From Verrucomicrobia bacterium UBA3841 (GTDB lineage: Bacteria; Verrucomicrobiota; Kiritimatiellia; RFP12; UBA1067): 30,421 bases of DNA. This document shows positions 16,888 through 29,702 of the stretch, one piece after another. The position numbers and the translations under genes are program-made. The stretch is from contig DGHT01000015.1 in the NCBI GenBank assembly GCA_002392765.1, positions 16,531 to 46,951 of the forward strand. The letters are read 5' to 3'. Position 1 is the stretch's first letter, and the number at the start of each line of letters is the position of its first letter. The notes beneath the pieces are model-generated. The model was not told the DNA's origin, searched no databases, and worked only from the letters and a program-made list of their open reading frames with translations.

Positions 16888-17781
16888 ATGAACTACAGAG
16901 AATTCATACACCCGGAGGACGAGGCGGCATTGCGCAATCTTGAGGCCGTTCCTGGTTTCGATACTGTCGCGCGCTTCATCCTGGAACATTTCACGGAAGA
17001 CATGATGCATGGTCTCTATATGGCGCAGAATGTACGCCTGTCGCCGTCGCAACTTCCGGAAATATTCAATCTGTTGCCGCCGATATGCGGAAAATTCGAA
17101 ATTGAATTGCCGGAATTTTACCTCACGATGGATCCTAGACCCAACGCCTGGACGATTGGCGACAAGCGCAAGTTCATCGTATTGACGAGCGGACTTCTTG
17201 ACCACATCGCCGACAAGGATGAATTGCAGTCCATAATCGCGCATGAATGCGGACACATTGTATGCCGGCACGTGCTGTACAACACCATTGCAATGCTGCT
17301 GGTGAAATTTGGCGAGAGCCTGGGCTTTGGCCGGATTGTCATCGCACCTATTCTCCTGGCCATAAAATATTGGCAGCGGCGCAGCGAGCTTTCCGCAGAC
17401 AGGGCGAGCGCGGTGTACACCGGCGGTCACGAAGTTCCGTGCCGTGCCCTGTTGAGGATATGCGGCGGACCTGACAACTTGACGAAAAACATCAACCTTC
17501 CGGAATATGCCGAACAGGCAAAGGCGTACGATGCATTGGTTGCAAAGAGCAAGTGGAACAAACTTCTTCAAAACATGGCGATAATGGATGCAGACCATCC
17601 TTTTGCCGCTGTTCGCGTACGAGAATTGTTGTCCTGGGCGGGTAGCGAACAGTTTGCGAAACTAAAGCAGGCGATGTCTGCGGCGGAAGTCTTGCCAATG
17701 TGTCGGAAGTGCGGACGGCGCATTGCTGCCGATGCGAAATTCTGCAGGTACTGCGGCAATAATTTGAAAGGAGAGAAGTGA
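16888..17781 (+). CDS. M48-family zinc metallopeptidase with C-terminal zinc ribbon
   Basis: HECGH at 17242-17256 is preceded by NAWT..FIVLTSGLL and followed by ELSADR (third zinc ligand region), as in the M48/HtpX-like family. The C-terminus is CRKCGRRIAADAKFCRYCG (CxxC-x10-CxxC). Confidence 0.75.
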   Translation: MNYREFIHPEDEAALRNLEAVPGFDTVARFILEHFTEDMMHGLYMAQNVRLSPSQLPEIFNLLPPICGKFEIELPEFYLTMDPRPNAWTIGDKRKFIVLTSGLLDHIADKDELQSIIAHECGHIVCRHVLYNTIAMLLVKFGESLGFGRIVIAPILLAIKYWQRRSELSADRASAVYTGGHEVPCRALLRICGGPDNLTKNINLPEYAEQAKAYDALVAKSKWNKLLQNMAIMDADHPFAAVRVRELLSWAGSEQFAKLKQAMSAAEVLPMCRKCGRRIAADAKFCRYCGNNLKGEK

Positions 17782-18020
17782 TGGGTATTGTGGAGAAACT
17801 GGACGAACTTGTCCAGAAGTCGGCGTCGTTCCGGAAAATAATGGAGGACGGCGTGGTTGAAGACAGCGAAGTTGAAGAGCAGGCAAAGCGGGTTGAGACG
17901 CTGCTTGCGGAGCTGGAGCGGAGTCTTTCGCCCGGTGATTTCGAGCGGGTCGCTGAGTTTATGGCAGAACTTTCGGTGCTGCAGGTGATCCTGCGCTACA
18001 ATCAGATTGGAGGACGGTGA
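17781..18020 (+). CDS. Small acidic, predicted helical protein
   Basis: 79-aa ORF whose ATG overlaps the upstream TGA (TGATG). No motif recognised. Support comes from operon packing only. Confidence 0.4.
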   Translation: MGIVEKLDELVQKSASFRKIMEDGVVEDSEVEEQAKRVETLLAELERSLSPGDFERVAEFMAELSVLQVILRYNQIGGR

Positions 18021-18021
18021 C

Positions 18022-18522
18022 ATGGCTTTCGCTTCGCAAATGAAATTCAACGTTTCGCCGAGCTGCATTCCGCACATGGCAAAGGCATTGGAGAATGCGC
18101 TCAGGGAAGAGGGATATGATACGAAGTGCGACACATTGTTGAACGGCGACGTTGTCGTTTCGCTGACAAAAGGAGGAATGTTCAAGGCTGTTGTCGGAAT
18201 GAAAACCGCGCTCAAAGTGGAGCTTCGCGCCGACTGCGGAAGCGTCCTTGCCAAGACGGGCGTCGGCATCTGGGGCCATCAGATAGTGCCAACCGTAATC
18301 ATGCTCCTCTGGTTCTGGCCTGTACTCATTACGCAGATATGGGGTCTTGTGCAGCAAAGCCGTCTTGACGCGCACGTGATGGATATCCTGTCCAGGGCGG
18401 TGTCCGGCGGGATGGACGCAATAGACGTTCCATCAGAGGACGTTTCCTCTGCCCGCTTTTGTTCCGAGTGCGGCAAGCCTGTCCACGGCAATTTCTGCTC
18501 CAACTGCGGCGCGAAGGTGTAA
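18022..18522 (+). CDS. Single-pass membrane protein with C-terminal zinc ribbon
   Basis: ATG at 18022, 8 nt after GGAGG (18009-18013). One hydrophobic helix (IVPTVIMLLWFWPVLITQIWGLV). The C-terminus is CSECGKPVHGNFCSNCG. Confidence 0.55.
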   Translation: MAFASQMKFNVSPSCIPHMAKALENALREEGYDTKCDTLLNGDVVVSLTKGGMFKAVVGMKTALKVELRADCGSVLAKTGVGIWGHQIVPTVIMLLWFWPVLITQIWGLVQQSRLDAHVMDILSRAVSGGMDAIDVPSEDVSSARFCSECGKPVHGNFCSNCGAKV

Positions 18523-18532
18523 GGAGGGGTTG

Positions 18533-20800
18533 ATGAACGGAATGGTGTTTGCGTTCAAGACGGCCGTGTACCTTGCGTTCGGGGCTTTGACGACCGCTGC
18601 AATGCTGCTTGTTATGGTGCGGGCGGCTCGGAATAAGTATGCGATGATATTGATTGGCGTATTTCTCTTCATCGCAGGGTTTGTTACATATTTCTCTCCG
18701 GTTGAGTCTTGCGGCAAAGCAGGCGGCTCGCACGGGATTCCCGGCAGTGCGAATGACTGCGCCCGTCCTGTGTCTGCAAATACGAATGAATGTTTGCGCG
18801 CAAACGCATGTATGGCGGATTCGACGCAAAACACTGCGGACGACATCTCCGCAGGCGGATGCGTTTTCATTAAAAACGGTGCAAAATCACTGTCGTCGGT
18901 GAACAGGACTCTCTCGGCTTTTTATCCGTCAAGAGGGGAGTACGACGACACGCCTCCACCAGGCTGGGGCGGGCTGAAATACTGGCTGTTCCATCTCGCC
19001 GCGATTCTTTATATCTTGACACTTGCGGTTTCCTACTTCGGTATTGAGCTGATCAACGCGGCGTCGCTGTGGATGCGCAAACAGGCGAAAAAATGGCGAC
19101 TCGGCGCATTCGTGCGGCAATCGGAATTGAATGTGTTCTGGGATGCGGGGCAGGAATCGGAAGCATTGGCCGGACAGATGCCGTCGAAAAGCGTCGTTTT
19201 CGCAATCGCAGCCGGCGGACGGTCGTGGCGTAAACTTCAGGACGACGATGCGATATGCAGACTTGTTCGCAAGGGTGTGTTGTGGATTTCTTCCGATTCC
19301 AAAACCAATCGCAGACTGCTGACAATCGCAAGACGCCATTTCTTCATCGGTCCGGACTGCCATGAAAACGTTGTGAAGGCGCAGAAATATGTTCAGTTTT
19401 TGTATGACGAAAACATTCGGCATAAGGTCGATGTGTATGTTCGCGTGTGGTCGGATGCCGATGATGACGCCGTCTACGCATGGGCGGACAAATGGAACGG
19501 CAGGTTTTCGAAAGAAGGATTCCTGACGCAGATAAACGTTCTGCGCGAAGAGTCCATCGTCTCCAGGAGATTCCTTGTAGACCATCCAATGCTGGATTGT
19601 CCCGGAGTGAGAGTTTCCGATTGCCATACGGCTTCTGTCGCAGGCGAATTCAAGTTGCTTGTTGTCGGCTTTGGCGTTCAGGGAGAGCGGCTTATGGGCG
19701 ACATGATCTGCGATGCGCAATTCCCGGACGGGAAAGGCGGCGCGATTCCGGTTTCCGTCGATGTGGTTGACAGGGACGATGCGTCGTTTGGATGGTGGAA
19801 GGCGAACTGCAAAGAGGCGTGTGCGCGGTATGGAATCCATTTCGAGAACTGTGCCGCCGAAAGCGACCGCTTTTGGAGGTTTATTGAAAGCCGTTGTGTG
19901 TACAACCGGATTGTGATCAGCACTCATGACGACATCTTGAATCTCCGGTTGGCGAACGACATTGCCAATTACTATGCTAAACGGTATAGGATGGATTATG
20001 CGGTACTGCGCAATACAATCTTCGCGCGCGTTCGCAGACCTTCGCTGTCCAAGGTGCTTTGCGGCGGCATGGCGGACAGATATCAGCTGTTCGGCGATGT
20101 ACTGGACACGTATTCTCCGAAATGGCTGCTGAACGACTCGTGGGACGATGGAGCAAAATTCATCAACGGTGTCTGGAGCGCCGTGTACGATGAAGATTTC
20201 AGGAAGCTTCCCGACGGGGCGGACGTGATCAGATGGTACCTCGACAATATGGATCGCGGCGAGAAATACTGGGCGGCAAGGCCAATGCTCGACAAGGAAT
20301 CTTCCCGTGCGTCGTTCTTGCACATGAGAAACATTTTGCGTCTGATGGGATATGAGTGCAGGCGTGACATGCCAACGGATGAGAATGCAGGGATAAAACA
20401 GCTGGAGATACCGGAAAACCAGAAGGAGGAGTTGAAATGCGCGGCCGGGGACGCAAAGCGCCGGGAGAAGCTTGCCGAGTCGGAACATTTGCGATGGATG
20501 GCCTTCCATTTTGTCCGGGGCTGGGAGAAGTGGAGCCCGACCGAGGACGAGCTTGAGAAGCTCTCCAACGGCGGCAAGAACAGAGTCGAGCCTAACAGCA
20601 TGAAGAGTCGTGCTCGCATACACGCGAACCTTGAGGATTTTGCCAGGCTGGACGAGGTTGACGAGAAGTTCAACATGATTAACAGGAAGAATGGCAGGGA
20701 GTCTGTTAATTCGAAGGACAAGGACATAAACATCATATATGGCATCGAAGCCATTTACGCGACCGGCTTTCGCGTGTTCAAAAAGGCGTGTGACACGTGA
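18533..20800 (+). CDS. Membrane protein with Rossmann-like (TrkA-N/RCK-like) region and C-terminal RyR-like domain
   Basis: ATG 5 nt after GGAGG (18523-18527). About three N-terminal hydrophobic helices. VVGFGVQG glycine-rich motif (GFGVQG at 19667-19684). The C-terminus EHLRWMAFHFVRGWEKW...IHANLEDFARLDEVDEKF...DKD resembles the RyR-domain pattern of the next gene. Confidence 0.55.
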   Translation: MNGMVFAFKTAVYLAFGALTTAAMLLVMVRAARNKYAMILIGVFLFIAGFVTYFSPVESCGKAGGSHGIPGSANDCARPVSANTNECLRANACMADSTQNTADDISAGGCVFIKNGAKSLSSVNRTLSAFYPSRGEYDDTPPPGWGGLKYWLFHLAAILYILTLAVSYFGIELINAASLWMRKQAKKWRLGAFVRQSELNVFWDAGQESEALAGQMPSKSVVFAIAAGGRSWRKLQDDDAICRLVRKGVLWISSDSKTNRRLLTIARRHFFIGPDCHENVVKAQKYVQFLYDENIRHKVDVYVRVWSDADDDAVYAWADKWNGRFSKEGFLTQINVLREESIVSRRFLVDHPMLDCPGVRVSDCHTASVAGEFKLLVVGFGVQGERLMGDMICDAQFPDGKGGAIPVSVDVVDRDDASFGWWKANCKEACARYGIHFENCAAESDRFWRFIESRCVYNRIVISTHDDILNLRLANDIANYYAKRYRMDYAVLRNTIFARVRRPSLSKVLCGGMADRYQLFGDVLDTYSPKWLLNDSWDDGAKFINGVWSAVYDEDFRKLPDGADVIRWYLDNMDRGEKYWAARPMLDKESSRASFLHMRNILRLMGYECRRDMPTDENAGIKQLEIPENQKEELKCAAGDAKRREKLAESEHLRWMAFHFVRGWEKWSPTEDELEKLSNGGKNRVEPNSMKSRARIHANLEDFARLDEVDEKFNMINRKNGRESVNSKDKDINIIYGIEAIYATGFRVFKKACDT

Positions 20801-21084
20801 TGAACGATGGCTATATCCCCCGTCCTCTCGACACATCGGACATATCCCTGCCCGAATCGCTCGTTGCGCTAATCGAGGCGTTGGCGGAGAATGTGCATGA
20901 CACATGGGCCAAAGGGCGAATGGACGGGGGCTGGACATACGGTCCGGTCCGCGACGACGCGAAGAAACAGCACCCCGGCCTAGTCCCGTACGCCGATCTC
21001 CCCGAATCCGAAAAGGCATACGACCGCGCCACGGCAATTTCGACGCTGAAGTTCATCTGCAAGAAGGGGTATTCTATCAAATGA
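20800..21084 (+). CDS. Stand-alone RyR-domain protein
   Basis: 94 aa. LAENVHDTWAKGRMDGGWTYGPVRDDAKKQHPGLVPYADLPESEKAYDRAT matches my memory of the RyR (ryanodine receptor repeat) domain consensus. TGATG overlap upstream and ATGA overlap downstream. Confidence 0.7.
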   Translation: MNDGYIPRPLDTSDISLPESLVALIEALAENVHDTWAKGRMDGGWTYGPVRDDAKKQHPGLVPYADLPESEKAYDRATAISTLKFICKKGYSIK

Positions 21085-22415
21085 CAGCTAATGAAGAACA
21101 TAGATGCCTGACGGAGTTCAAGGAACATCATTGGGACATGCTGCTTGATTACATCGGGCAGGGGCGTGTAGTGCCTGTATTAGGTCCGGAACTTTTGGTC
21201 GCAAATGAGGCGGGGCGAAGTGTTCCGTTCTATCAGGAGGTCTCTAGACGACTTGCACATCACTTCGACATGCCTGAAATTGAATCTGAGACGGTTAATG
21301 ATTTCATGTCCCGTTTTTTGAAGGGGAACAATACGGTAAAGATGGCTCGAACCGGCTTAATTAAGGTGTTGAAGGAACTCGAAGATCAACCGCAACCGTC
21401 TCTTCGGAAACTGGCATCGATAAATGCCTTCAAACTCTACCTGACGACAACGCCGGATAATCTGCTTGCAAAGGCATTGACCGCTTGCGGGACAGATCCT
21501 GATGTGTACTTCTTTAGTACCAATTACAAGCGCCGGAGCGACTTGCCGGACAAAAAACTGCTAGGTCGCCAACGTTACATTTATCACCTCTATGGGAAAG
21601 CTGCGCCATGTTTTGAGTATGCCATTTCAGAGGACGATCGCCTCTTGTTTTCGTGCGAATGGATGGATTCGCAGGTTAAGCCGAGGAATCTGCTGTCTTA
21701 TTTGGCGGACAAGTATCTATTGATTCTCGGATGCGGGTATGAAAATTGGCAAGCGCGCTTTTTCCTGTTTGGACTTAAGGGGGCGGAGTTGTTCTCCAAC
21801 ATTTGGGATGCAAGCAGCCTGTTGGCGGATTCGCACACCCGAAATGATGCCCAGCTTGACCGATTCCTCTCAAGGTGCAGAGGGAATATCTATTACGAAG
21901 GCGGGGCGATCAAGTTCGTGGACGAACTTTGCAAACGATTGGAGAATACTCCTGCCGTACCGTCAGAGAGGGAGGGTGATACGTTTGAGAAGGGCAGCAT
22001 CTTTATCAGCTATGCCAGCGAGGACAAAGAAGCCGCGCTCAAGATCAAGCGGCGCTTGGAGTCGTTTAGTCTTCCTGTTTGGCTTGACAAGTTTAGATTG
22101 GAAAGCGGTTCTGACTACGATGCGCGCATAGAGAACAACATAAGGAACAGCGCGCTCTTTATCCCAATCCTTTCTCAAACGACTGCGCAGACGGCTGAAC
22201 CACGCTACTTCCGCAAGGAATGGAATATTGCCGTAGACCAGTCGCTTAGGAGCTCCCCGAAAATTCCTTTTATTCACCCCATCGCACTTGATGGCGTCGA
22301 ACCTTGCGACAACATTCCCGGTGCGATAAATAAGGTTCATTGGATACACGCGCCAGGAGGCGAACTGAATGAATGCGACATTGACCGGCTTATTGATCTG
22401 ATCGCACAACTGTAG
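21081..22415 (+). CDS. SIR2-like (SIR2_2-type) domain fused to a C-terminal TIR domain
   Basis: The N-terminal half has, in SIR2_2 order, VVPVLGPELL, YLTTTPDNLL, IYHLYGK and LLILGCGYENWQARFF. The C-terminal part (from 21993) is TIR-like: IFISYASEDKE...LPVWLDKFRLESGSDY...ALFIPILSQ...YFRKEW. The listed ORF start at 20904 is an out-of-frame extension into the RyR gene. Confidence 0.65.
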   Translation: MTANEEHRCLTEFKEHHWDMLLDYIGQGRVVPVLGPELLVANEAGRSVPFYQEVSRRLAHHFDMPEIESETVNDFMSRFLKGNNTVKMARTGLIKVLKELEDQPQPSLRKLASINAFKLYLTTTPDNLLAKALTACGTDPDVYFFSTNYKRRSDLPDKKLLGRQRYIYHLYGKAAPCFEYAISEDDRLLFSCEWMDSQVKPRNLLSYLADKYLLILGCGYENWQARFFLFGLKGAELFSNIWDASSLLADSHTRNDAQLDRFLSRCRGNIYYEGGAIKFVDELCKRLENTPAVPSEREGDTFEKGSIFISYASEDKEAALKIKRRLESFSLPVWLDKFRLESGSDYDARIENNIRNSALFIPILSQTTAQTAEPRYFRKEWNIAVDQSLRSSPKIPFIHPIALDGVEPCDNIPGAINKVHWIHAPGGELNECDIDRLIDLIAQL

Positions 22416-22426
22416 GAGGCGTGTAT

Positions 22427-25400
22427 ATGTCTAATAATGTTTTCAAGTCCGCGTGGCCAGGTCTGAATTCCTACGAAGAGGAAGATCAATCCCGTTTCTT
22501 CGGAAGGGACAGGGAGATTGATCTTTTGAAGGATGTCATCGGCACTGAATCGTTATGTACGATTTACGGTGTTTCCGGCGTCGGGAAGACATCCCTGTTG
22601 CAGGCTGGTGTTTTCCCAGAGTTGCGGGCGCGTTGTTTCCTGCCAGTGTATTTGCGTCTGGGACATGACAAAATTGACAGGCCGTATGCAGCCCAAATCA
22701 TTGAAGGATGCCTCGCGGCGGCGCGGAAGTCAAGACTTGAGGTGGTAGAGACATGTCAGGCGCTGGGGGCGTCCGAACATGAGACGCTATGGGAATGGTT
22801 TCACAGGCATGAATTTTTGAACGCCGTCAAGAAAGTCGTGCGCCCGGTTCTTGTCATCGACCAGTTCGAGGAAGTGTTCACACAGGGGAGTGACAAGGCT
22901 GAAAAAGAGTCTTGGTTTGATGAATTGACCGACCTGTGTTCCAACAGCGTTCCGGAATCTGTTGCAGATTTCATGTCTAATTCTGAAAATGATTTGGCTT
23001 TCCAAACAGAGAACCAGACCTGGCGCACGGTAATCTGTTTGAGAGAAGATTTTCTCTCGCGTCTAGAAGAGCGAACTGTTGAGTACCCGATATTCAAGCG
23101 GAACCGCATATCAATAGGGCCGTTGAGTGCCGAAAACGCAATAGAGGCGGTACTGAAAGGCGGAGATGGAATTGTCGATCTGACAGTCGCCGAATGTATC
23201 GTAAGGTATGTAGGAGGTTCGGCCGGGAAAATTGAGACCCCATTGCTTTCGTTGTTTTGTTCGCGTCTTGACATCCTTCGGCAAAGGGCTGGGTTGCCGA
23301 AGATCTCGCAGGAACTCGTCGAAGGAAACAAGGGTAAGATACTGAACAGTTTCTACGATGAATCGATGGGGCTTGTTTCGGCGTCATCCCGCGACTATCT
23401 TGAGGCGAATCTTCTGAACGAGGGGGGCTACCGGACGCCGGTACAACTCGATGAGGCGGAACGGAACGGTGTCCGGCCCGAAGAATGGAAAACACTTGAA
23501 AGAGTTCGCCTGTTACATGTGATTTCACGTGACAATGTACAGTGGTTGGAATTTAGTCATGACACCTTGGCGCCGGTTGCGAAAAGCGCACTTGAAAGGC
23601 GAAAAGCGGACAGGGAACGGCATGTGATGCAGGAGAAGTTGGCTCGTTCACGTCGTCGCACCAGAAGGCTCTTCTATGCATTTGTCGGCTTTGTCGGCTT
23701 TATATGCATCGCATCGTTTGCAACGTGGTTTCTGTTCTACAAGGAACATGTTGCGTACTATAGGGAATTTACCAAGAAATGGGGATGTCCAGTTGGGGTC
23801 GGTGCGCCGCTTACGATGGAACAGGTGCGCCACAGGGAATGCAGTTTTAGAATGAAGCGAAAGGGTCTGTATTCGCGGCGCGGCTTCCATTTTGAACCCA
23901 CCTATGCATATCGCGTCGAGGCTGTCAACGGTCGTCTGCAACCGACGACCGCACATGGGATGGTGACGTATTTGTGGGGAGGGGAAAATACAGCAAAACA
24001 GATGCAGAAAGAATTGGATAAGCGGAATTCAAATTATAAAGGGGACGCAAAAAGCGTTGGTAAAGACAACGCAAATGACAACCGCAAAAGTGGCTATTTG
24101 ACGTCAACGAAACTGGGAACAGTTTGCACATGGGAATTCATGTGTGACAAAGATGGTTTGCCGGAACGCGAAATCGGCTATGACGAAAAGGGCGAAATAG
24201 TATGGATGATGCCGTATGCCGTGGAAGCCACTGCAAATAGCGGGAAGCCAGAGTCTGCGATTGTGCATTTTACAATGAAAGACAGTTATTCGGTGAGACA
24301 GCGGCTGGACGATGCAGAATATGTAAGAATAACATACGACGATAAAAGCGGTTATGAAACAAAATACGAGTTCCTCGATAGGTATGGTAATGAAACCATA
24401 GGACCGGATGGTGTGTATGCGCGATCTCGAGAGTATTATTCTTCGGGGCGACTTAAGAAGCACGCCTCTTTGGATGTAGCAGGGAATTACATCATTGACC
24501 TGGCTGGGAATACAGGCCTGCGGTATGAGTATTCAGATGACAATCGGGAAATGCGCGTCACATCATTTGGTACAAACGAAGAGGCAAAGGCTTTAAACGA
24601 TGGATGGGTAAAATGTGTGCAGCGATATGACGAATGGGGAAATCTTGCGGAGCAAAGTTTCTACGATGCGACAAATCGGCTGGCTCTTTCCGATGGATGG
24701 CCGAGTGCCATCGTTGAAAGGGATTCCTATGGTCTCAAACAATCAGTGACATTGAGGGGGCAGATGTCCAATGGAGAAGATTTGGAACAATATGTTCTTT
24801 TTGATGTCGAGGGCAATGCGACAAACGTAGTGTGGCGCAATGCAAATGACAAAAGACCTAGCTGTAAGCCGGGAACTGAAGTACACATGATCTGCCGAGA
24901 GTATGCAGGCAAGGACAGGGCTTCGGTCGAGTGGTATTTAGATGTGAATAATGAGGCGATCACAAATGAATATGGCGTTGCCAGGGATGTGAGTATATAT
25001 GACACATCAACAGGCATGCTCGACACGAATAACCTTTACGCCCTGCCAGGACAAGGTGGAGCGCTAGGATACACCAATGTCCATCATTCATGTACGAGTT
25101 TTGATGGGTTCGGAAACCAGACCGGAGAAAGGTATTTTGATGCGGATGGGAATCCTACTGCGGATAACAACGGTGTATTTGAGTGTAAGTACTTGTGGCA
25201 GGGTGGCTATAAGGTTAGAGATGACTACCTTGCGCCGAATGGCAAAGGCGGGGTTGGGGGCGGCACAAACGTGCATCACATGGTGAAAATCTACAAGACA
25301 GTCAATGGTGCGAATCTTTGCGTGTGCGAGAAGTATTATGGTTGCGACGAAAGCCCGGTCGCGAACAATTACGGCGTAGCGAGAGTGGAATATACGTATG

Positions 25401-26440
25401 ACACAGCCGGCGTTGAAAGACGCCGAGATATGTATTCGGCGGATGCCGCCGGAGGAATCTGGGGGTGCACAAATCTATGCCATGTACTTGAGACGCGTGA
25501 TGAAAGGGGAAACACCGAGACGCAGCAGTGTTTTGACAGGGATGGGCGATATGTCGCATCTGACGGCACTGGGATGGTTGTTGGTCGTATGTCTTACTTT
25601 CCCGGTTCAGGCGATAATCCGCCCGTCATATCCATGCTTGATGGTTTCTCAATGCCGACGGTTGGCTTTGGCAATGACGGAAGAAGATGCAGGGTGACGC
25701 GATTCTACCGTAAAGACGGAGGAGAAAGAAGGACTGAAGAAGTAGATTTCAGCGGTAATCGCCATATTGAGGAAAAGAATACTGACGGTAATGTCACCTC
25801 CGAGGAGTTTGCGGGTGCGAAAGATGGTGGAATTGCCGATTTCAGTCTGCACGGAGTGGCTAAAATCAATCGGTGTTATGGTATAAAACCTGCCACTTTG
25901 TTTGAGCGTATATTCGGTGGGGGAGTCAAGCATAAGGACATTTGTGTGCGCGAAATGTATCTTGATTCATCGGGGAATCCGGTCGTCAATCGTTTTGGTA
26001 TCGCGGGATGGCGCAAGGATACGGATTACTCATCCGGCAAAATTGGGAATACCTTGTACTTTGATGTTTCAAGTAATGAAATGAAAGTTGCCGTAGGCAG
26101 GATTGTGACACCCAGCAGGGTTAGACCGCTCGGTATGGCTGACAAGAATGGAATCAAGGTTGGCGATATAATCTGTCACTACAACGATTATGATATATTG
26201 CGTTCCTCCTTGGATGTCATGGAACAAGTCGTTTCAACCGGGATGAACGATAATAAACGGATTGTCATCGGCAGAAGAAATAAGAATGGCCAATACGACA
26301 TAATCCCATATATATTGCCTCCCGGTGTACTTAATTTTAATCTGGTTGATGTGCCGATTAGCGAGGAGTATTATAAAGAACTTGAACACGACTATAAGGC
26401 GTATCAGGCGTATTGCGAAAAAGAAAGCGGGATGAAGTAA
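22427..26440 (+). CDS. STAND-class P-loop NTPase with TM helix, YD/RHS-like repeat region and PDZ-like C-terminus
   Basis: ATG 7 nt after AGGAGG (22414-22419). The lead-in WPGLNSYEEEDQSRFFGRDRE is followed by Walker A GVSGVGKTS (22568-22594) and Walker B VLVIDQFEEVF. RRRTRR precedes the hydrophobic helix LFYAFVGFVGFICIASFATWFLFY (23669-23740). About 24100-26070 carries repeated YD..GN / FD.DGNP.....GV motifs. The C-terminal part is GIKVGDII...GRRNKNGQYD...LVDV. Confidence 0.7.
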   Translation: MSNNVFKSAWPGLNSYEEEDQSRFFGRDREIDLLKDVIGTESLCTIYGVSGVGKTSLLQAGVFPELRARCFLPVYLRLGHDKIDRPYAAQIIEGCLAAARKSRLEVVETCQALGASEHETLWEWFHRHEFLNAVKKVVRPVLVIDQFEEVFTQGSDKAEKESWFDELTDLCSNSVPESVADFMSNSENDLAFQTENQTWRTVICLREDFLSRLEERTVEYPIFKRNRISIGPLSAENAIEAVLKGGDGIVDLTVAECIVRYVGGSAGKIETPLLSLFCSRLDILRQRAGLPKISQELVEGNKGKILNSFYDESMGLVSASSRDYLEANLLNEGGYRTPVQLDEAERNGVRPEEWKTLERVRLLHVISRDNVQWLEFSHDTLAPVAKSALERRKADRERHVMQEKLARSRRRTRRLFYAFVGFVGFICIASFATWFLFYKEHVAYYREFTKKWGCPVGVGAPLTMEQVRHRECSFRMKRKGLYSRRGFHFEPTYAYRVEAVNGRLQPTTAHGMVTYLWGGENTAKQMQKELDKRNSNYKGDAKSVGKDNANDNRKSGYLTSTKLGTVCTWEFMCDKDGLPEREIGYDEKGEIVWMMPYAVEATANSGKPESAIVHFTMKDSYSVRQRLDDAEYVRITYDDKSGYETKYEFLDRYGNETIGPDGVYARSREYYSSGRLKKHASLDVAGNYIIDLAGNTGLRYEYSDDNREMRVTSFGTNEEAKALNDGWVKCVQRYDEWGNLAEQSFYDATNRLALSDGWPSAIVERDSYGLKQSVTLRGQMSNGEDLEQYVLFDVEGNATNVVWRNANDKRPSCKPGTEVHMICREYAGKDRASVEWYLDVNNEAITNEYGVARDVSIYDTSTGMLDTNNLYALPGQGGALGYTNVHHSCTSFDGFGNQTGERYFDADGNPTADNNGVFECKYLWQGGYKVRDDYLAPNGKGGVGGGTNVHHMVKIYKTVNGANLCVCEKYYGCDESPVANNYGVARVEYTYDTAGVERRRDMYSADAAGGIWGCTNLCHVLETRDERGNTETQQCFDRDGRYVASDGTGMVVGRMSYFPGSGDNPPVISMLDGFSMPTVGFGNDGRRCRVTRFYRKDGGERRTEEVDFSGNRHIEEKNTDGNVTSEEFAGAKDGGIADFSLHGVAKINRCYGIKPATLFERIFGGGVKHKDICVREMYLDSSGNPVVNRFGIAGWRKDTDYSSGKIGNTLYFDVSSNEMKVAVGRIVTPSRVRPLGMADKNGIKVGDIICHYNDYDILRSSLDVMEQVVSTGMNDNKRIVIGRRNKNGQYDIIPYILPPGVLNFNLVDVPISEEYYKELEHDYKAYQAYCEKESGMK

Positions 26441-26508
26441 TGACATCTAAGCGAACGCTTACGGGTTTCCGCGGATTATATCCGGCATATTAGGTTGTTT
26501 TGCGACAG

Positions 26509-26542
26509 ATGCGGAGCATGCTCCGCATTATTATTGTGTTTT
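26509..26542 (+). terminator. Putative intrinsic terminator closing the 7-gene operon
   Basis: Perfect 20-bp palindrome atgcggagcatgctccgcat (26509-26528), immediately followed by tattattgtgtttt. Confidence 0.55.
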
Positions 26543-26565
26543 GATATGAATTATGGTATACTTGT

Positions 26566-27060
26566 GTGCAAAATGAGGATTTGAACATGATAGATCGTCC
26601 TTATGGGCTTAAGTGGCTTTGGCAATGGAAAGACCATGAGCCGATAAAAGTCGTCACCGGCATACGACGGTGCGGCAAATCGACATTGCTTTCAATGTTT
26701 CAGGAGCAATTGCGCGAAGACGGCATCAACGCCGATCAGATTGTCGCAATCAACTTTGAGCATCCGGATTTCATGGAACTTGACAATTCCGCCGCCGTAT
26801 GGAAATACTTGAAGCCGAAAATTGCCCAGGGACGAAATGCATACGTTTTCCTTGATGAAATTCAGCGTGTAAGAGACTTTGAAAAGGTGGTTGACGGACT
26901 TTTGTGCTGCCTGGCGTTGATGTCCTGTTGCGCTTGATGCCGTGGTACGATACATCTTCGACAACATCGGGAATCTCACGAGCATGCGGAATATCGCGAC
27001 AGTCCTGAAGTCTGAAGGCGTTTCAATTGATGCTTCTTCTGTTGAGGACTATGTCTCCGC
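26566..27060 (+). pseudogene. Decayed AAA_14 / DUF4143-family ATPase gene
   Basis: The N-terminal fragment has Walker A GIRRCGKST and Walker B VFLDEIQ, then a premature stop at 26935-26937. A second fragment in another frame (from 26942) reads VRYIFDNIGNLTSMRNIATVLK..SVEDYVSAL, like the DUF4143 part. Intact family members are, from memory, roughly 400 aa. Confidence 0.6.
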
Positions 27061-27063
27061 CCT

Positions 27064-27112
27064 GTGCGGCACGGGCGGTCGGCGGCGAATGGCGTTGCGA
27101 TCGTGTATAGTC
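27064..27112 (+). pseudogene. 49-nt fragment of a histidine phosphatase gene 5' end
   Basis: Ungapped alignment to 29067-29115 matches at 42 of 49 nt, including 27 of the first 28. It translates to VRHGRSAANGVAIVYS against VRHGRSAANEDPTVYS in the intact gene. There is no start codon in frame. Confidence 0.7.
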
Positions 27113-27212
27113 TACGGTATTGGCGATGTAGTTTAAGAATTTTGTGAAATTTAAGTTGGAAATTGCAAGATAAATGTGGCGATAAAACTGTACCATCTAT
27201 TGGAGTTGCGAA

Positions 27213-29018
27213 ATGAACAAGTCACAACAATACGATATCTTCATTTCATACCGCCGCGAGGGCGGATATGACACGGCGCAGCTGCTGTACGACCGGTTGA
27301 CGCAGATGGGCTATCGCGTGTCGTTCGACCTGGAGACGCTGCGCGGCGGGAAGTTCAACACGCAGCTCTACCGGCGCATCGAGCAATGCTCCGACATGCT
27401 TGTCATCATGAGCAGGGATTCTCTTAACCTTCGCGAGAATCACGAGGACGACTGGTTCCGGCTGGAGATCGCCCACGCGCTGAAGCACAAGAAGAACATC
27501 GTCCCCGTGTTCCTGCGTGACTTCAAGTTCCCTCAGAAAGGGGAGTTGCCAGACGATATAGCCGACCTGGTGGACTATCAGGGCGTCACGGCGTCGCAGG
27601 AACATTTCGACAGTGTGCTGAATCGGATATGCAGGAACTTCAAGGCGAAGCCCCATCGGCGCAAATGGCCGGTAGTCGCCGCCATTGCCGCAGCTCTTCT
27701 TGTCGGCGCGGGGATTGGAGTCTGGTTGAAGGCAGACAAGATTTTCCCGTATCCTTTTACCAGAGAGGCAAGACAGGAGGTTGATGCATACTATGGAACT
27801 GTGTTGCGGATTGGGGCCGCCTACAATGAATTTCTGTCCGCAAAGATGGAACTTCTTGACAAGGTCAGTTTGAGTATAGAAGCTGAAGACAAGGCGCCAT
27901 ATCAAGCCGCCGTACCAGAGTTCTTGCATCGACGCGGAATGGCGAGAAAAAATCTCGACGCCGCTGCTGAGGCGTTGGAAAGAGTTGTCAAGGAGAACCC
28001 CGGATTGCGTGTGGATCGCGCATACATACCGAATTTCCTGGAGGGGGTACGACAGGAATTCGGCGATGCGGATGAGTGGGCTGCTCTTTTCAGCCTCCCG
28101 TGTGATCCTGATTACGTATGCTCAAAGGCAAACAGGATTAGGATTGTCATGCTCAATCGCAAGGAGATTGAGATATATGCCGACGTGTTTGCCTATGGCG
28201 TCATGTTCCTTTTCGACATGATTTCGCCGGAAGCGCTCGCTGACTTTAGGGAAGTCGCGGCAAAACAGTGGACGATGTTGAAGCGGTTCAGAGGTGAATG
28301 GCTGTCAGATCAAAAGCAGATTGAACAGAATGGCGAGGCTTCGCTGAACCAGCTTCAAGAAGTGGTCGAGGAGCGTGCGCAGATAATAGGAAATACGGCA
28401 CAGGCCCTGGAGCAGGCTAAGCGCAACACCAGGCAAATGAGAATGGACGCGGGAATGTCGCCGGAACAAGCCGAGAGAATCGGCAAGAAGGAGGAGGAGC
28501 TTGAGAATTTGAAGGCGCAGAGGAAAGAGACGCAAAAAGCGATAGCGGATGCACGAGAGCGGCTCCGCAAGAAGTTCGCGCCGAAGGATGATGACGACAT
28601 TGGAATACTCTGGGGCAAGGCGTTGCGGTTCATGTCAGTCAATATGCCGGAGGAGGCGAAGCGGTGTGCAGATGTTTTGCGTCGGCGCAATACGCCGGAT
28701 TTCCCGCCATCGGCGATAGACACCGCGGAGGCGATCATCCTGTCTAAAGGCGCGTTGCCGTTTGTGGGTGGTGTCTTGGTTTGTTCATACGAACCGCCGG
28801 CTACGTCTCATGCGATATTCAAAATCGGAGACGTCGTCACGGAAGTGAACGAGAAACCATGTCTGTACTTCGAGGATTACAGCAGCAAGGCCGGCAACAC
28901 CTACACGATATACCGTCGAAACGCGAAGGGCCAGTTTGACAAGCTGACGGCAACCATGCCTGAAGGCCAGCCGCGTGTGGCTCTGGTGGATTTGGCGGAG
29001 AAGGGCGACCGCAAGTAG
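27213..29018 (+). CDS. TIR domain - TM helix - coiled-coil region - PDZ-like C-terminal domain protein
   Basis: GGAG lies 7 nt upstream of the ATG. TIR start YDIFISYRREGGYD...VIMSRDSL...DDWFRLEIAHAL...IVPVFL. KAKPHRRK precedes the helix WPVVAAIAAALLVGAGIGVWL (27666-27728). A charged heptad-like stretch runs about 28300-28580. The C-terminus is IFKIGDVVTEVN...YRRNAKGQFD...LVDL. Confidence 0.75.
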   Translation: MNKSQQYDIFISYRREGGYDTAQLLYDRLTQMGYRVSFDLETLRGGKFNTQLYRRIEQCSDMLVIMSRDSLNLRENHEDDWFRLEIAHALKHKKNIVPVFLRDFKFPQKGELPDDIADLVDYQGVTASQEHFDSVLNRICRNFKAKPHRRKWPVVAAIAAALLVGAGIGVWLKADKIFPYPFTREARQEVDAYYGTVLRIGAAYNEFLSAKMELLDKVSLSIEAEDKAPYQAAVPEFLHRRGMARKNLDAAAEALERVVKENPGLRVDRAYIPNFLEGVRQEFGDADEWAALFSLPCDPDYVCSKANRIRIVMLNRKEIEIYADVFAYGVMFLFDMISPEALADFREVAAKQWTMLKRFRGEWLSDQKQIEQNGEASLNQLQEVVEERAQIIGNTAQALEQAKRNTRQMRMDAGMSPEQAERIGKKEEELENLKAQRKETQKAIADARERLRKKFAPKDDDDIGILWGKALRFMSVNMPEEAKRCADVLRRRNTPDFPPSAIDTAEAIILSKGALPFVGGVLVCSYEPPATSHAIFKIGDVVTEVNEKPCLYFEDYSSKAGNTYTIYRRNAKGQFDKLTATMPEGQPRVALVDLAEKGDRK

Positions 29019-29042
29019 GCAGGCGAGATTAAGACAAATGCA

Positions 29043-29702
29043 ATGAAACCTAAGCGAATAATCCTAGTGCGGCACGGACGGTCGGCGGCGAATGAGGATC
29101 CGACCGTGTACAGTCGTGTGCCCGACTACAAGATCGAGCTTGTGGAGCAGGGGCTGGAAGAGGCTCGCCGGGCTGGAGAGCATATTCGCGATCTGATTGG
29201 ATCCGAATCCTACGGTGTGTATGTTTCGCCGTATCGCCGTACCTTGCAGACCAAGGAATGCATTGTTGAACGGATAGGTTTTGCGCCTGCATTTGATTAT
29301 CAGGAACCATACCTTCGCGAGCAGGAGATGGGCAATATGCCGGCAATCATCGATAATGAGTTGAACTGGGCGGCACGAAAGAAGTACGGGACGTTCTTCT
29401 ATCGATTCCCGGACGGCGAGTCGTGCGCGGACATCTATGACCGCATGTGCGGATTCCTCGACAATCTCCACCGGCAGTTTGGCAATCCGGACTATCCCCG
29501 GAACATCATAATCGTCACGCACAGCGTCGCCATGTGCTGCTTCCTCTTCCGCTGGTATCACTGGACGGTGGAGAAGTTCGACTCTCTGCCGCTCTTGCCA
29601 AACTGCCACATCGCCGTCATGACACGCGGAGATGACGGGGCGTTTGTGCTGACCGAGCCATATTCCATGAAACCGTATCTGTCAACTGACGACAACCAAT
29701 GA
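29043..29702 (+). CDS. Histidine phosphatase superfamily (phosphoglycerate mutase-like) protein
   Basis: The N-terminal RIILVRHGRSAAN carries the RHG catalytic motif. SPYRRTLQT and IIIVTHSVAM follow at the expected spacing. 219 aa. Confidence 0.75.
   Translation: MKPKRIILVRHGRSAANEDPTVYSRVPDYKIELVEQGLEEARRAGEHIRDLIGSESYGVYVSPYRRTLQTKECIVERIGFAPAFDYQEPYLREQEMGNMPAIIDNELNWAARKKYGTFFYRFPDGESCADIYDRMCGFLDNLHRQFGNPDYPRNIIIVTHSVAMCCFLFRWYHWTVEKFDSLPLLPNCHIAVMTRGDDGAFVLTEPYSMKPYLSTDDNQ

Follow-up and report, generated by a model that had tools for sequence, protein, structure and literature searches.

A predicted single-pass nSTAND1 receptor with an extracytoplasmic YD-repeat sensor and a linked SIR2-TIR gene

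RESULTS

A STAND NTPase with one predicted transmembrane helix

Can a STAND NTPase be switched by something that lies outside the cytoplasm? The question is raised by one gene in a 30,421-nucleotide stretch of DNA (here called the window) from Verrucomicrobia bacterium UBA3841, a member of the Kiritimatiellia (GenBank assembly GCA_002392765.1, contig DGHT01000015.1, positions 16,531 to 46,951 of the forward strand; coordinates below are those of the window). To our knowledge, every bacterial STAND/NLR-like immune sensor with a characterized mechanism (Avs, bNACHT) recognizes phage proteins within the cytoplasm. The gene at 22427-26440 encodes a protein that begins with an nSTAND1 NTPase module, continues with one strongly hydrophobic helix, and ends in a region of YD-type repeats followed by a PDZ domain. 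We consider it probable that this protein is a single-pass, N-in/C-out inner-membrane receptor whose periplasmic YD/PDZ sensor activates a SIR2-TIR partner encoded by the gene directly upstream. The idea of a STAND protein bearing a transmembrane (TM) segment is already known from computational work and is not new here. The gene and the features of its N-terminal half are as follows.

22427..26440, + strand: whole gene, nSTAND1 NTPase–TM helix–YD-repeat ectodomain–PDZ, 1337 amino acids (aa) plus stop
22454..23566, + strand: STAND module, predicted to be cytosolic, residues 10-380 (P-loop nucleotide-binding domain [NBD], helical domain ~235-328, winged-helix domain ~341-376)
22568..22591, + strand: Walker A GVSGVGKT, residues 48-55 (S50, G51, G53, and K54 invariant in 55 homologues)
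22847..22873, + strand: Walker B VLVIDQFEE, residues 141-149 (D145, F147, and E148 invariant in 55 homologues)
23558..23563, + strand: H378-D379 at the C-terminal edge of the winged-helix domain, conserved without exception in sets of 18 and of 55 homologues
23567..23668, + strand: juxtamembrane helix, residues 381-414, with the basic end RSRRRTRR (23645-23668), part of a continuous predicted helix 381-452
23669..23740, + strand: predicted TM helix L415-Y438, 24 uncharged residues, N-in/C-out (from hydrophobicity and family conservation)

The protein is a clear member of the nSTAND1 clade. The Pfam model nSTAND1 (PF20703) matches residues 12-287 with an E value of 2.8e-30 and 106.7 bits, against a cutoff of 27.1, and both Walker motifs, an R206-E207-D208 motif that is invariant across 55 homologues, and the His-Asp pair of the winged-helix domain are kept; in homologues, the alignment to PF20703 extends to about profile position 370 of 379. 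The segment leading into the NTPase, residues 10-30, reads WPGLNSYEEEDQSRFFGRDRE. Since the nSTAND1 match begins at residue 12, there is no space for an N-terminal effector domain, and Pfam found no catalytic domain elsewhere in the whole protein. For residues 1-455, the AlphaFold2 model built from an alignment of 55 sequences (predicted local distance difference test [pLDDT], 90.6; predicted TM-score [pTM], 0.80) features a P-loop alpha/beta core, helices at 235-328, and a helix-helix-hairpin at 341-376. The Foldseek neighbors of this modeled module are those expected of a STAND NTPase, namely, Orc1/Cdc6, archaeal ATPase_2, and NLRP NACHT modules (1e-10 to 1e-6); a search with the NTPase module found no sequence relative among solved structures. 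Judged by its position in the model, H378-D379 is MHD-like, that is, the predicted counterpart of the MHD motif of NLRs.

The hydrophobic helix has no rival within the protein. L415-Y438 reaches a 19-residue Kyte-Doolittle mean of 2.15, against 1.22 for the runner-up segment, and a Wimley-White octanol sum of -12.8 kcal/mol, against -3.9 for the runner-up, and a hydrophobicity scan of the whole protein found no other hydrophobic segment and no signal peptide. A single strong segment of this kind implies an odd number of membrane crossings and, if it does span the membrane, the ATP-dependent head would be cytosolic and the remaining 899 residues would lie outside. Lysines and arginines (K+R) number 7 in the 15 residues on the N-terminal side of the helix versus 4 on the C-terminal side. 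In the AlphaFold2 models, an unbroken helix leads from the winged-helix domain through the hydrophobic stretch to an all-beta domain (residues 381-452; 382-438 in the model of the ectodomain), and, as judged by secondary structure and pLDDT, it is continuous and unpacked against either domain. The prediction is thus a cytosolic STAND NTPase joined through one N-in/C-out helix to an extracytoplasmic repeat sensor.

An initial annotation, made from the DNA letters without database searches, had arrived at the same coupling of a STAND switch to an extracytoplasmic sensor. Its reading of a STAND lead-in with Walker A and B at the N terminus agrees with the nSTAND1 profile match, and its placement of RSRRRTRR before one strongly hydrophobic helix at 23669-23740 was exact, that helix being the lone one of its kind. 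The roughly 900 repeat residues that it saw beyond the helix correspond to 899 residues with 48 beta-strands in hairpins (AlphaFold2) and a YD consensus. The outside location that it assigned to them finds computational support in the hydrophobicity, the charge bias across the family, the AlphaFold2 models, a PDZ domain of the periplasmic type, and the swapping of the same module among other proteins, as set out below.

The layout is shared across an nSTAND1 clade

We compared the 120 best matches to the query protein, which represent its nearest clade rather than the whole of PF20703, and called a helix in a homologue when the corresponding region held a hydrophobic segment with a Kyte-Doolittle value of at least 1.6. 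A helix was found at the equivalent place in 116/120 homologues, down to about 30% identity, and nearly all of them have no second one; recurrence at the same place in so many proteins argues that the helix is not a chance feature. The spacing from Walker A to the helix has a median of 385 aa (interquartile range, 375-393), and the flanks carry on average 6.4 K+R on the N-terminal side versus 3.4 on the C-terminal side, with the N-terminal side the more basic in 110 of the 116. The helix is kept with any type of sensor: WD40 propellers, TPR arrays, FGE-sulfatase/C-type-lectin domains (8/8), and YD repeats. It is also present in 104 of the 107 homologues that have Walker A within the first 75 residues and therefore no N-terminal effector; one homologue with an N-terminal TIR domain, P0075, has no helix. 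As predicted from these sequences, a large nSTAND1 clade, and not the window protein alone, has the single-TM, effector-less layout, and the search for homologues of the same NTPase-TM-repeat layout that the initial annotation had proposed found it clade-wide.

The region behind the helix: YD-type repeats and a PDZ domain

Four features make up the C-terminal region.

23741..26062, + strand: predicted ectodomain, residues 439-1212, ~48 beta-strands of YD/RHS-type hairpin repeats (family consensus, AlphaFold2, Foldseek)
23987..24091, + strand: low-complexity, predicted disordered insert, residues 521-555 (model pLDDT < 50)
26105..26350, + strand: C-terminal PDZ domain, residues ~1227-1308 (Pfam PDZ_6/PDZ_2, ~2e-4 on the isolated segment)
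26363..26425, + strand: C-terminal amphipathic helix, residues 1313-1333 (model)

The assignment of this region to the YD type is based on the family consensus, on Pfam matches in homologues, and on Foldseek. In the family alignments, the ectodomain opens with a conserved juxtamembrane motif, (E)HVxYYRxFTKxxGxPxGIG, after which the repeat consensus YDxxGN...DG.P....G.A recurs; strict YD motifs number seven in the window protein. Pfam RHS_repeat (PF05593) is significant in the homologues P0010 (6e-11) and P0022 (9e-5) and not in the window protein, for which PF03527 is the only repeat profile to respond (E=0.04). The AlphaFold2 model of residues 379-1337 (24 sequences; pLDDT 81, pTM 0.58) places a helix at 382-438 and, from there to residue 1212, 48 beta-strands that pair into hairpins. 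Its top Foldseek matches (5e-19 to 1e-11) are Rhs cores of the type VI secretion system (T6SS) (7q97, E=5e-19), teneurin and teneurin-like YD shells, and the Tc toxin BC component (TcB/TcC), with TM-scores of just 0.1-0.2 and a root mean square deviation of about 30 Å; the matches point to a repeat type in common with Rhs and teneurin proteins and, with such low TM-scores, give no support for a closed cocoon. A sequence search of the ectodomain against the PDB gave a marginal PDZ match and nothing more, and a profile search retrieved PDZ domains and no Rhs or teneurin protein.

Residues 1227-1308 fold as an alpha/beta domain in the model, and the family profile of this PDZ domain matches the PDZ domains of periplasmic DegP and DegQ and of RseP-type site-2 proteases (6e-7 to 1e-5). 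The DPxG[LWF] autoprotease motif is absent throughout the protein, and no C-terminal toxin domain was found, the C terminus being occupied by the PDZ domain. One relative, P0002, holds an additional copy of the PDZ domain and is 310 aa longer.

The same module on other heads

An exhaustive phmmer search with the ectodomain returned 1160 clusters at E<=1e-3. Among the best 155 of them, the head was nSTAND1 in 77, a Ser/Thr kinase in 24, and TIR in 23, with AAA_35, SIR2_2, and DUF4062+nSTAND1 as further heads, and a hydrophobic helix immediately precedes the module in 143 of the 155. Several headless copies bear a typical Sec signal peptide instead, such as P0212, MKKRILFALMLALAAMASAVSAETA. A module that can be exchanged among receptor-kinase-like, TIR-TM, and signal-peptide contexts is expected to be extracytoplasmic; from these architectures, the TM-plus-YD module appears to behave as a true ectodomain. 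This indicates a general design, an outside sensor combined with a cytosolic conflict-type head, that extends past STAND proteins. It also makes literal a likeness to receptor kinases and Toll-like receptors (TLRs) that the initial annotation had drawn, as the same TM-plus-repeat module sits on Ser/Thr kinases and on TIR domains. The rarer heads are represented by P0266 (SIR2_2), P0170/P0178/P0234 (AAA_35), and P0192/P0152 (DUF4062+nSTAND1).

A SIR2-TIR gene directly upstream

If the STAND chain carries no effector, a candidate is provided by the preceding gene.

21081..22415, + strand: partner protein, SIR2_2-like + TIR_2, 444 aa, predicted to be cytosolic, directly upstream of the STAND gene

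Pfam assigns TIR_2 to this protein with 5e-19 and SIR2_2 with 0.0057, a match that is below threshold here and significant in homologues, and a hydrophobicity scan found no hydrophobic or TM segment in its 444 aa. The TIR half matches the NAD+ hydrolase AbTIR (E=3e-5), the invariants of the partner family include FxSYA..D, W334, D336, and E380-W381, and the SIR2 half keeps the His in YHLYG.

The linkage of the two genes is found with very different sensors: an SIR2_2+TIR_2 gene lies immediately upstream in 6/6 metagenome contexts, which comprise YD, FGE-sulfatase, WD40, and TPR sensors, and the two genes often overlap there by 4 nt. For the GTDB loci, in which adjacency was measured by anchoring on the Walker A codons, an SIR2-TIR open reading frame (ORF) is upstream in 75/78 evaluable cases, ending 140-350 nt (median 171) before the Walker A codons, compared with 153 nt in the window. 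These loci belong to Acidobacteriota, Verrucomicrobiota, Gamma- and Betaproteobacteria, Bacteroidota, and Actinomycetota. The core system is a widespread two-gene operon, SIR2-TIR followed by TM-nSTAND1-sensor, in which the SIR2-TIR protein is the probable effector, supplied in trans. The term "effector-less" used in the initial annotation therefore holds for the polypeptide, in which nSTAND1 starts at residue ~10, and fails for the system, given the upstream gene in 75 of the 78 loci. PADLOC v2.0.0 (2023), the sole defense catalogue searched, has no entry for this pairing of SIR2-TIR with TM-nSTAND1, and no paper using the terms "SIR2-TIR" or "TIR-SIR2" was found in the searchable literature.

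SIR2-TIR/nSTAND1 pairs also occur in tandem near toxin-antitoxin and AAA_15/21 genes. On a 1.98-Mb contig of a Holophagales metagenome-assembled genome (L008), three SIR2-TIR/nSTAND1-WD40 pairs stand in tandem within 17 kb. One of these pairs has a duplicated SIR2-TIR gene, and AAA_15/AAA_21+DUF3696 and MazE/Fic genes are neighbors; the whole resembles an array of paralogous receptors.

A wider cassette suggests cyclic ADP-ribose-type signaling

Around the STAND gene, a multigene cassette (window 16888-29702) is conserved in three related loci, L006, L005, and L004, whose STAND proteins are 85%, 36%, and 29% identical to that of the window, respectively. Its members with recognizable domains are listed here.

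18530..20800, + strand: protein of 756 aa; three TM segments in the N-terminal part, Rossmann region (GxGxxG), C terminus similar to RyR (L004 orthologue, TrkA_N + RyR)
20797..21084, + strand: 95-aa RyR (Repeat12) domain protein (Pfam RyR, 3.5e-34)
27213..29018, + strand: TIR–TM (~154-172)–430-aa C-terminal region with a PDZ-like end (Pfam TIR_2, 7.8e-15; Kyte-Doolittle value of the TM segment, 2.42)
29043..29702, + strand: histidine phosphatase His_Phos_1, 219 aa, whose counterpart directly follows the STAND gene in relatives

The core order, namely, TrkA_N/RyR-like protein, small RyR protein, SIR2-TIR, and STAND receptor, persists even in L004, the relative at 29% identity. An M48 peptidase with a zinc ribbon and two small proteins (one of 79 aa, the other of 166-171 aa and combining a zinc ribbon with a TM segment) are present in the window, L006, and L005 and not in L004, and the same distribution is seen for His_Phos_1 and the additional TIR proteins. 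Across these relatives, the first listed protein varies in length (640-756 aa) and in its number of TM segments (two or three), and it combines a Rossmann/TrkA_N region with a RyR-like end. Pfam detected neither TrkA_N nor RyR in the window copy, even at E<=0.1, and the assignment is made solely because of the annotation of the L004 orthologue and a visible H..W motif; the protein is a candidate membrane effector or signal receiver.

The small RyR-domain protein (94-98 aa across the relatives) matches PDB entry 3nrt, a RyR-like protein of B. thetaiotaomicron, with 3.7e-33. Phage RyR-domain proteins (RyDEP) bind or hydrolyze the TIR products 2'cADPR and 3'cADPR (cADPR, cyclic ADP-ribose) via H75, W78, H100, and D117 (2026 preprint; PMC13232231). 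H34/W37/H59/D76 of the window protein are spaced identically to these four residues, and, encoded as it is beside TIR genes, this host RyR protein could be a buffer or degrader of TIR signals. The conservation of RyR-domain proteins and of a histidine phosphatase, together with the residue spacing, suggests cADPR-type signaling, and the output of the YD subclade is probably a cADPR-type nucleotide, besides or in place of NAD+ depletion.

The TIR-TM protein at 27213-29018 has a TLR-like layout, with coiled-coil-like sequence in its C-terminal region. Its PDZ-like end is related to the PDZ domain of the STAND protein (BLASTP of the C termini, E=9e-6).

Gene boundaries, locus, and divergence

Two further features flank the STAND gene.

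22415..22419, + strand: Shine-Dalgarno-like GGAGG, 7 nt before ATG 22427 of the STAND gene (sequence read)
26508..26529, + strand: terminator-like hairpin with a 9-bp stem, ~70 nt past the STAND stop codon

The STAND ORF on the + strand has two possible starts, GTG 22421 and ATG 22427, and its stop ends at 26440; ATG 22427 is the likely start codon. The GGAGG shares bases with the TAG stop of the SIR2-TIR gene, an overlap that suggests translational coupling of the two genes. The gene is not confined to one assembly: the public protein P0001 is 100% identical over all 1337 aa, and the identical gene with the same neighbors is found on contigs of three independent metagenome samples. The nearest GTDB relatives, from Odoribacter, Alistipes, and Thermoanaerobaculaceae, are just 27-29% identical. 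Upstream of the locus lie housekeeping genes (a pcnB-like poly(A) polymerase gene, mlaE/F/D, ilvD, and pheT); the pcnB-like gene, ilvD, and pheT mark the locus as chromosomal, and MlaE and MlaD imply a diderm organism with an outer membrane.

Segment 26441-27212 is an insertion relative to the close relatives L005 and L006, in which His_Phos_1 directly follows the STAND gene. It holds the terminator-like hairpin and a truncated AAA_14/PDC-S01-like ATPase remnant (26566-26937, 123 aa), which matches the first 113 of 412 positions of the PADLOC profile PDC-S01 with 2e-34. The window also contains long antisense ORFs, such as one of 702 aa at 18929-21037 (- strand), with low-complexity, Arg/Pro-rich translations; they are most likely artifacts of G+C-rich coding sequence and not genes.

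The divergence between the window gene (22427-26440) and its counterpart in L006 (6437-11380) is mosaic. The NTPase is 98.3% identical with a synonymous divergence (dS) of 0.036, the ectodomain is 82% identical (dS 0.29), and the PDZ domain is 75% identical (dS 0.68), while dN/dS is 0.2-0.5 throughout. As the dS of the ectodomain is eightfold that of the NTPase, the sensor half would have been exchanged by recombination rather than simply have evolved faster, which fits the picture of module swapping. Positive selection on the ectodomain found no support, as dN/dS is 0.26-0.53 and the raised dS points to recombination or mosaicism. A phage-borne origin was rejected, with one weak match in 2.9 million viral contigs.

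DISCUSSION

A possible mechanism

How might such a receptor work? The switch, consisting of NBD, helical domain, and winged helix, would reside in the cytosol, and a helix of about 70 residues would exit the winged-helix domain and cross the membrane at 415-438 to a 900-residue periplasmic sensor, built as a sheet of YD/RHS-type beta-hairpins that ends in a PDZ domain of the DegP/RseP kind. Because a single helix cannot relay autoinhibition of the NBD by the sensor, activation by clustering of the ectodomains is the most likely mode. A multivalent or envelope-derived ligand, or else the loss of a self ligand (guard release), might bring the ectodomains together; the PDZ terminus suggests that, like DegS and DegP, the sensor recognizes C-terminal peptides that have become exposed. 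Once clustered, the NTPase modules would be more concentrated in two dimensions, which would allow them to oligomerize with ATP, and the STAND oligomer may then assemble and activate the cotranslated cytosolic SIR2-TIR partner. TIR NADases require higher-order assembly, as in SARM1, plant TNLs, AbTIR, and TIR-STING. The output could be loss of NAD+ and/or a cADPR-type messenger, for which the small RyR protein might serve as signal buffer or degrader, the three-TM TrkA_N-RyR protein as membrane effector, and the histidine phosphatase as signal phosphatase.

It is tempting to extend this scheme to the whole clade, although we do so tentatively, as a possibility somewhat less likely than not. 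In this extension, the STAND proteins would be outside-in pattern-recognition receptors, with YD, WD40, TPR, or DGR-diversifiable (DGR, diversity-generating retroelement) FGE-lectin sensors, and would respond to phage particles, foreign cells, or a damaged envelope with no need to wait for entry into the cytoplasm. Clustering-driven oligomerization would switch on an SIR2-TIR NADase or cADPR synthase, and RyR proteins would act as receiver or buffer in the YD subclade.

Several observations weigh against the receptor reading, its effector, or its immune role. Three proteins with NTPases 50-56% identical to that of the window (P0012, P0013, and P0017) have no helix, their basic linker leading directly to TPR repeats; the helix has therefore been gained or lost inside the clade and is not obligatory, and the NTPase can work with a cytosolic sensor. 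The C-terminal flank of the helix in the window protein is itself fairly basic, with 4 K/R in 15 residues. In the literature, Kaur et al. describe STAND-FGS proteins as using "intracellular invader-sensing" lectin domains (PMC8195603), and Dore et al. predicted in 2024 that nSTAND1-FGE targets of DGRs are cytoplasmic (PMC10907252). The canonical Asn of TTNYD is missing from the SIR2 half of the partner (TTTPD in the window; family consensus ttfD), so that this half may be catalytically inactive. Genes for RyR, His_Phos, and TrkA_N proteins are restricted to the YD subclade and are not found around most other members of the clade. Finally, PADLOC assigned the STAND protein (1339-aa form) to 0 families, NCBIfam gave noise-level matches, and the 2.9 million viral contigs yielded the one weak match mentioned above; with the PADLOC null and this near-absence from viral contigs, a defense role is proposed by analogy only.

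Alternative readings

The alternative that survives best keeps the transmembrane architecture and changes its purpose. The protein could be a nonimmune receptor for envelope stress, for a nutrient or polymer, or for cell-cell contact, controlling an NAD-derived messenger and ion flux through TrkA_N-RyR much as bacterial receptor Ser/Thr kinases control their outputs. We regard this as rather unlikely. Twenty-four proteins that resemble Ser/Thr receptor kinases have the same ectodomain, PDZ domains like those of DegS, DegP, and RseP are classic sensors of envelope stress, and teneurin-type YD shells mediate cell-cell recognition; the chromosomal setting among pheT, ilvD, and pcnB, the essential absence from viral contigs, and the lack of a PADLOC match would also fit. 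These points are countered by the fact that bacterial SIR2 and TIR domains are overwhelmingly NAD+-destroying or immune-signal enzymes, by the occurrence of the pairs as tandem arrays of paralogs close to toxin-antitoxin, TIR-kinase, and TIR-STAND genes, by the mosaic and fast divergence of the sensor part, and by the FGE-sulfatase versions, whose class undergoes diversification by DGRs (PMC8195603, PMC10907252).

The other two alternatives, which deny membrane spanning or propose a toxin, are poorly supported. It is quite improbable that the helix just anchors the protein on the cytoplasmic side of the membrane, or is a buried structural element, with cytoplasmic repeats that sense molecules of intracellular invaders. 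Such a location would agree with the published assignment of the related STAND-FGS sensors (PMC8195603, PMC10907252), with the close relatives that have no TM helix, and with the four K/R on the C-terminal flank. It is difficult to reconcile with a lone segment of 24 uncharged residues of such hydrophobicity (Kyte-Doolittle, 2.15; Wimley-White, -12.8 kcal/mol), with a charge bias in the N-in direction in 110/116 homologues, with the same module behind cleavable signal peptides and kinase-TM heads, with a PDZ domain of periplasmic type, and with a modeled helix that is continuous and not packed into either domain (secondary structure and pLDDT). That the C-terminal region is an Rhs/YD toxin cocoon and the protein a polymorphic toxin or cargo container, as the YD-repeat consensus and the top Foldseek matches to T6SS Rhs effectors and Tc toxin BC might suggest, is the most improbable reading of all, since the DPxGL/PxxxxDPxGL autoprotease motif and a toxin domain are absent, the C terminus is a PDZ domain, the N terminus is a P-loop NTPase with no PAAR, VgrG, or secretion-associated N terminus, TM-scores of 0.1-0.2 give no support for a closed Rhs-type shell, and no immunity gene is evident.

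If the receptor reading is correct, these proteins would unite three things in one receptor class, namely, outside sensing with a single TM helix as in TLRs, an ATP-driven oligomeric switch as in NLRs, and the NAD+ chemistry of TIR and SIR2 domains; functionally, they would be a bacterial Toll-like receptor/NLR hybrid. An old question would then be directly testable, namely, whether bacteria can sense an invader, or danger at the envelope, while the foreign genome is still outside and pass the signal on to abortive-infection effectors. For STAND biology, the layout poses the question of how the switch is held off, as autoinhibition by contact of the sensor with the NBD is impossible across a membrane. 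The RyR/His_Phos/TrkA_N cassette gives RyR domains, which bind or cleave TIR-made cADPR signals (PMC13232231), a first context on the host side.

Comparison with known systems

The anti-phage Avs STAND proteins were reportedly described by Gao et al. in 2022. The window protein shares with Avs and bNACHT the sensor–STAND switch–effector logic and the activation of an effector by oligomerization. It differs from the Avs and bNACHT proteins characterized so far, which are soluble, unite effector and switch in one polypeptide, and meet the phage proteins that they bind in the cytoplasm, whereas here the effector would act in trans.

The remark in the initial annotation that the known Avs/bNACHT sensors are cytosolic is outdated, if read as covering all bacterial STAND sensors, in view of Kibby et al., who list a class of bacterial NACHT proteins with "TM regions" that may sense intramembrane or periplasmic signals (bioRxiv 10.1101/2022.07.19.500537). 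That class has multiple TM regions, sometimes within the NACHT module; here, in contrast, one helix parts the switch from the sensor. The nSTAND1 clade was named by Kaur, Iyer, Burroughs, and Aravind (eLife 2021; PMC8195603), and the C-terminal sensors published for it (WD40, TPR, and FGE-sulfatase [FGS]) also occur in the clade of the window protein. The published focus is on N-terminal effector-associated domains (EADs) and effectors, whereas the clade considered here has no N-terminal domain, a single TM helix between the winged-helix domain and the sensor, and a separate SIR2-TIR gene, with YD repeats and a PDZ domain in the window protein itself. In the searchable literature, with figures and supplementary architecture tables outside the search, we did not find it stated that a large effector-less nSTAND1 clade is near-uniformly single pass with an outside sensor and a dedicated SIR2-TIR partner, nor that such a protein has a YD-repeat and PDZ sensor, and the searchable literature held nothing specific on transmembrane or periplasmic NLR-like proteins and no experiment on protection against phage; a 2026 survey of defense-associated STANDs does not discuss membrane-spanning forms (PMC12803255).

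On the effector side, Thoeris (ThsB TIR plus ThsA SIR2-SLOG) and phage RyDEP (PMC13232231) resemble the locus in the co-occurrence of TIR, SIR2, and RyR-domain proteins. In contrast to Thoeris, SIR2 and TIR are fused here in a 444-aa protein, no SLOG or Macro domain was detected, and activation would presumably come from the STAND scaffold and not from direct phage sensing by ThsB; unlike phage RyDEP, the RyR proteins here are host encoded. The NCBIfam Thoeris ThcB4 model gave 41.5 bits on the TIR-TM protein at 27213-29018, against a cutoff of 220.

On the sensor side, Rhs/YD shells (T6SS Rhs effectors, Tc toxin BC, and teneurins) resemble the window protein in the type of beta-hairpin repeat, as matched by Foldseek, and in an extracytoplasmic (here predicted) or secreted location. 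The window protein departs from them in having no autoprotease motif and no cargo or toxin, a low TM-score, and a terminal PDZ domain, and in that its repeat module serves signaling receptors. Envelope- or periplasm-triggered defense that is relayed across the inner membrane has precedents in Zorya ZorAB (PMC11946911) and in DdvA, an anti-sigma factor for CBASS/CRISPR (PMC11506125), although these are unrelated proteins with unrelated mechanisms, a proton-driven motor in ZorAB and regulated anti-sigma proteolysis in DdvA, and have no STAND NTPase.

The closest parallel in layout is with TLRs and receptor kinases, as a functional analogy only: they, too, combine a repeat ectodomain, a single TM helix, and a cytosolic signaling module, the same ectodomain sits on Ser/Thr kinase and TIR heads elsewhere, and a TIR-TM-ectodomain protein is encoded in the same locus (27213-29018). 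The polarity of the window protein is reversed with respect to these receptors, with the head N-terminal and, as predicted, cytosolic and the sensor C-terminal, its ectodomain has no homology to that of TLRs, and its head, neither a kinase nor a TIR domain, would be an ATP-dependent oligomerization switch.

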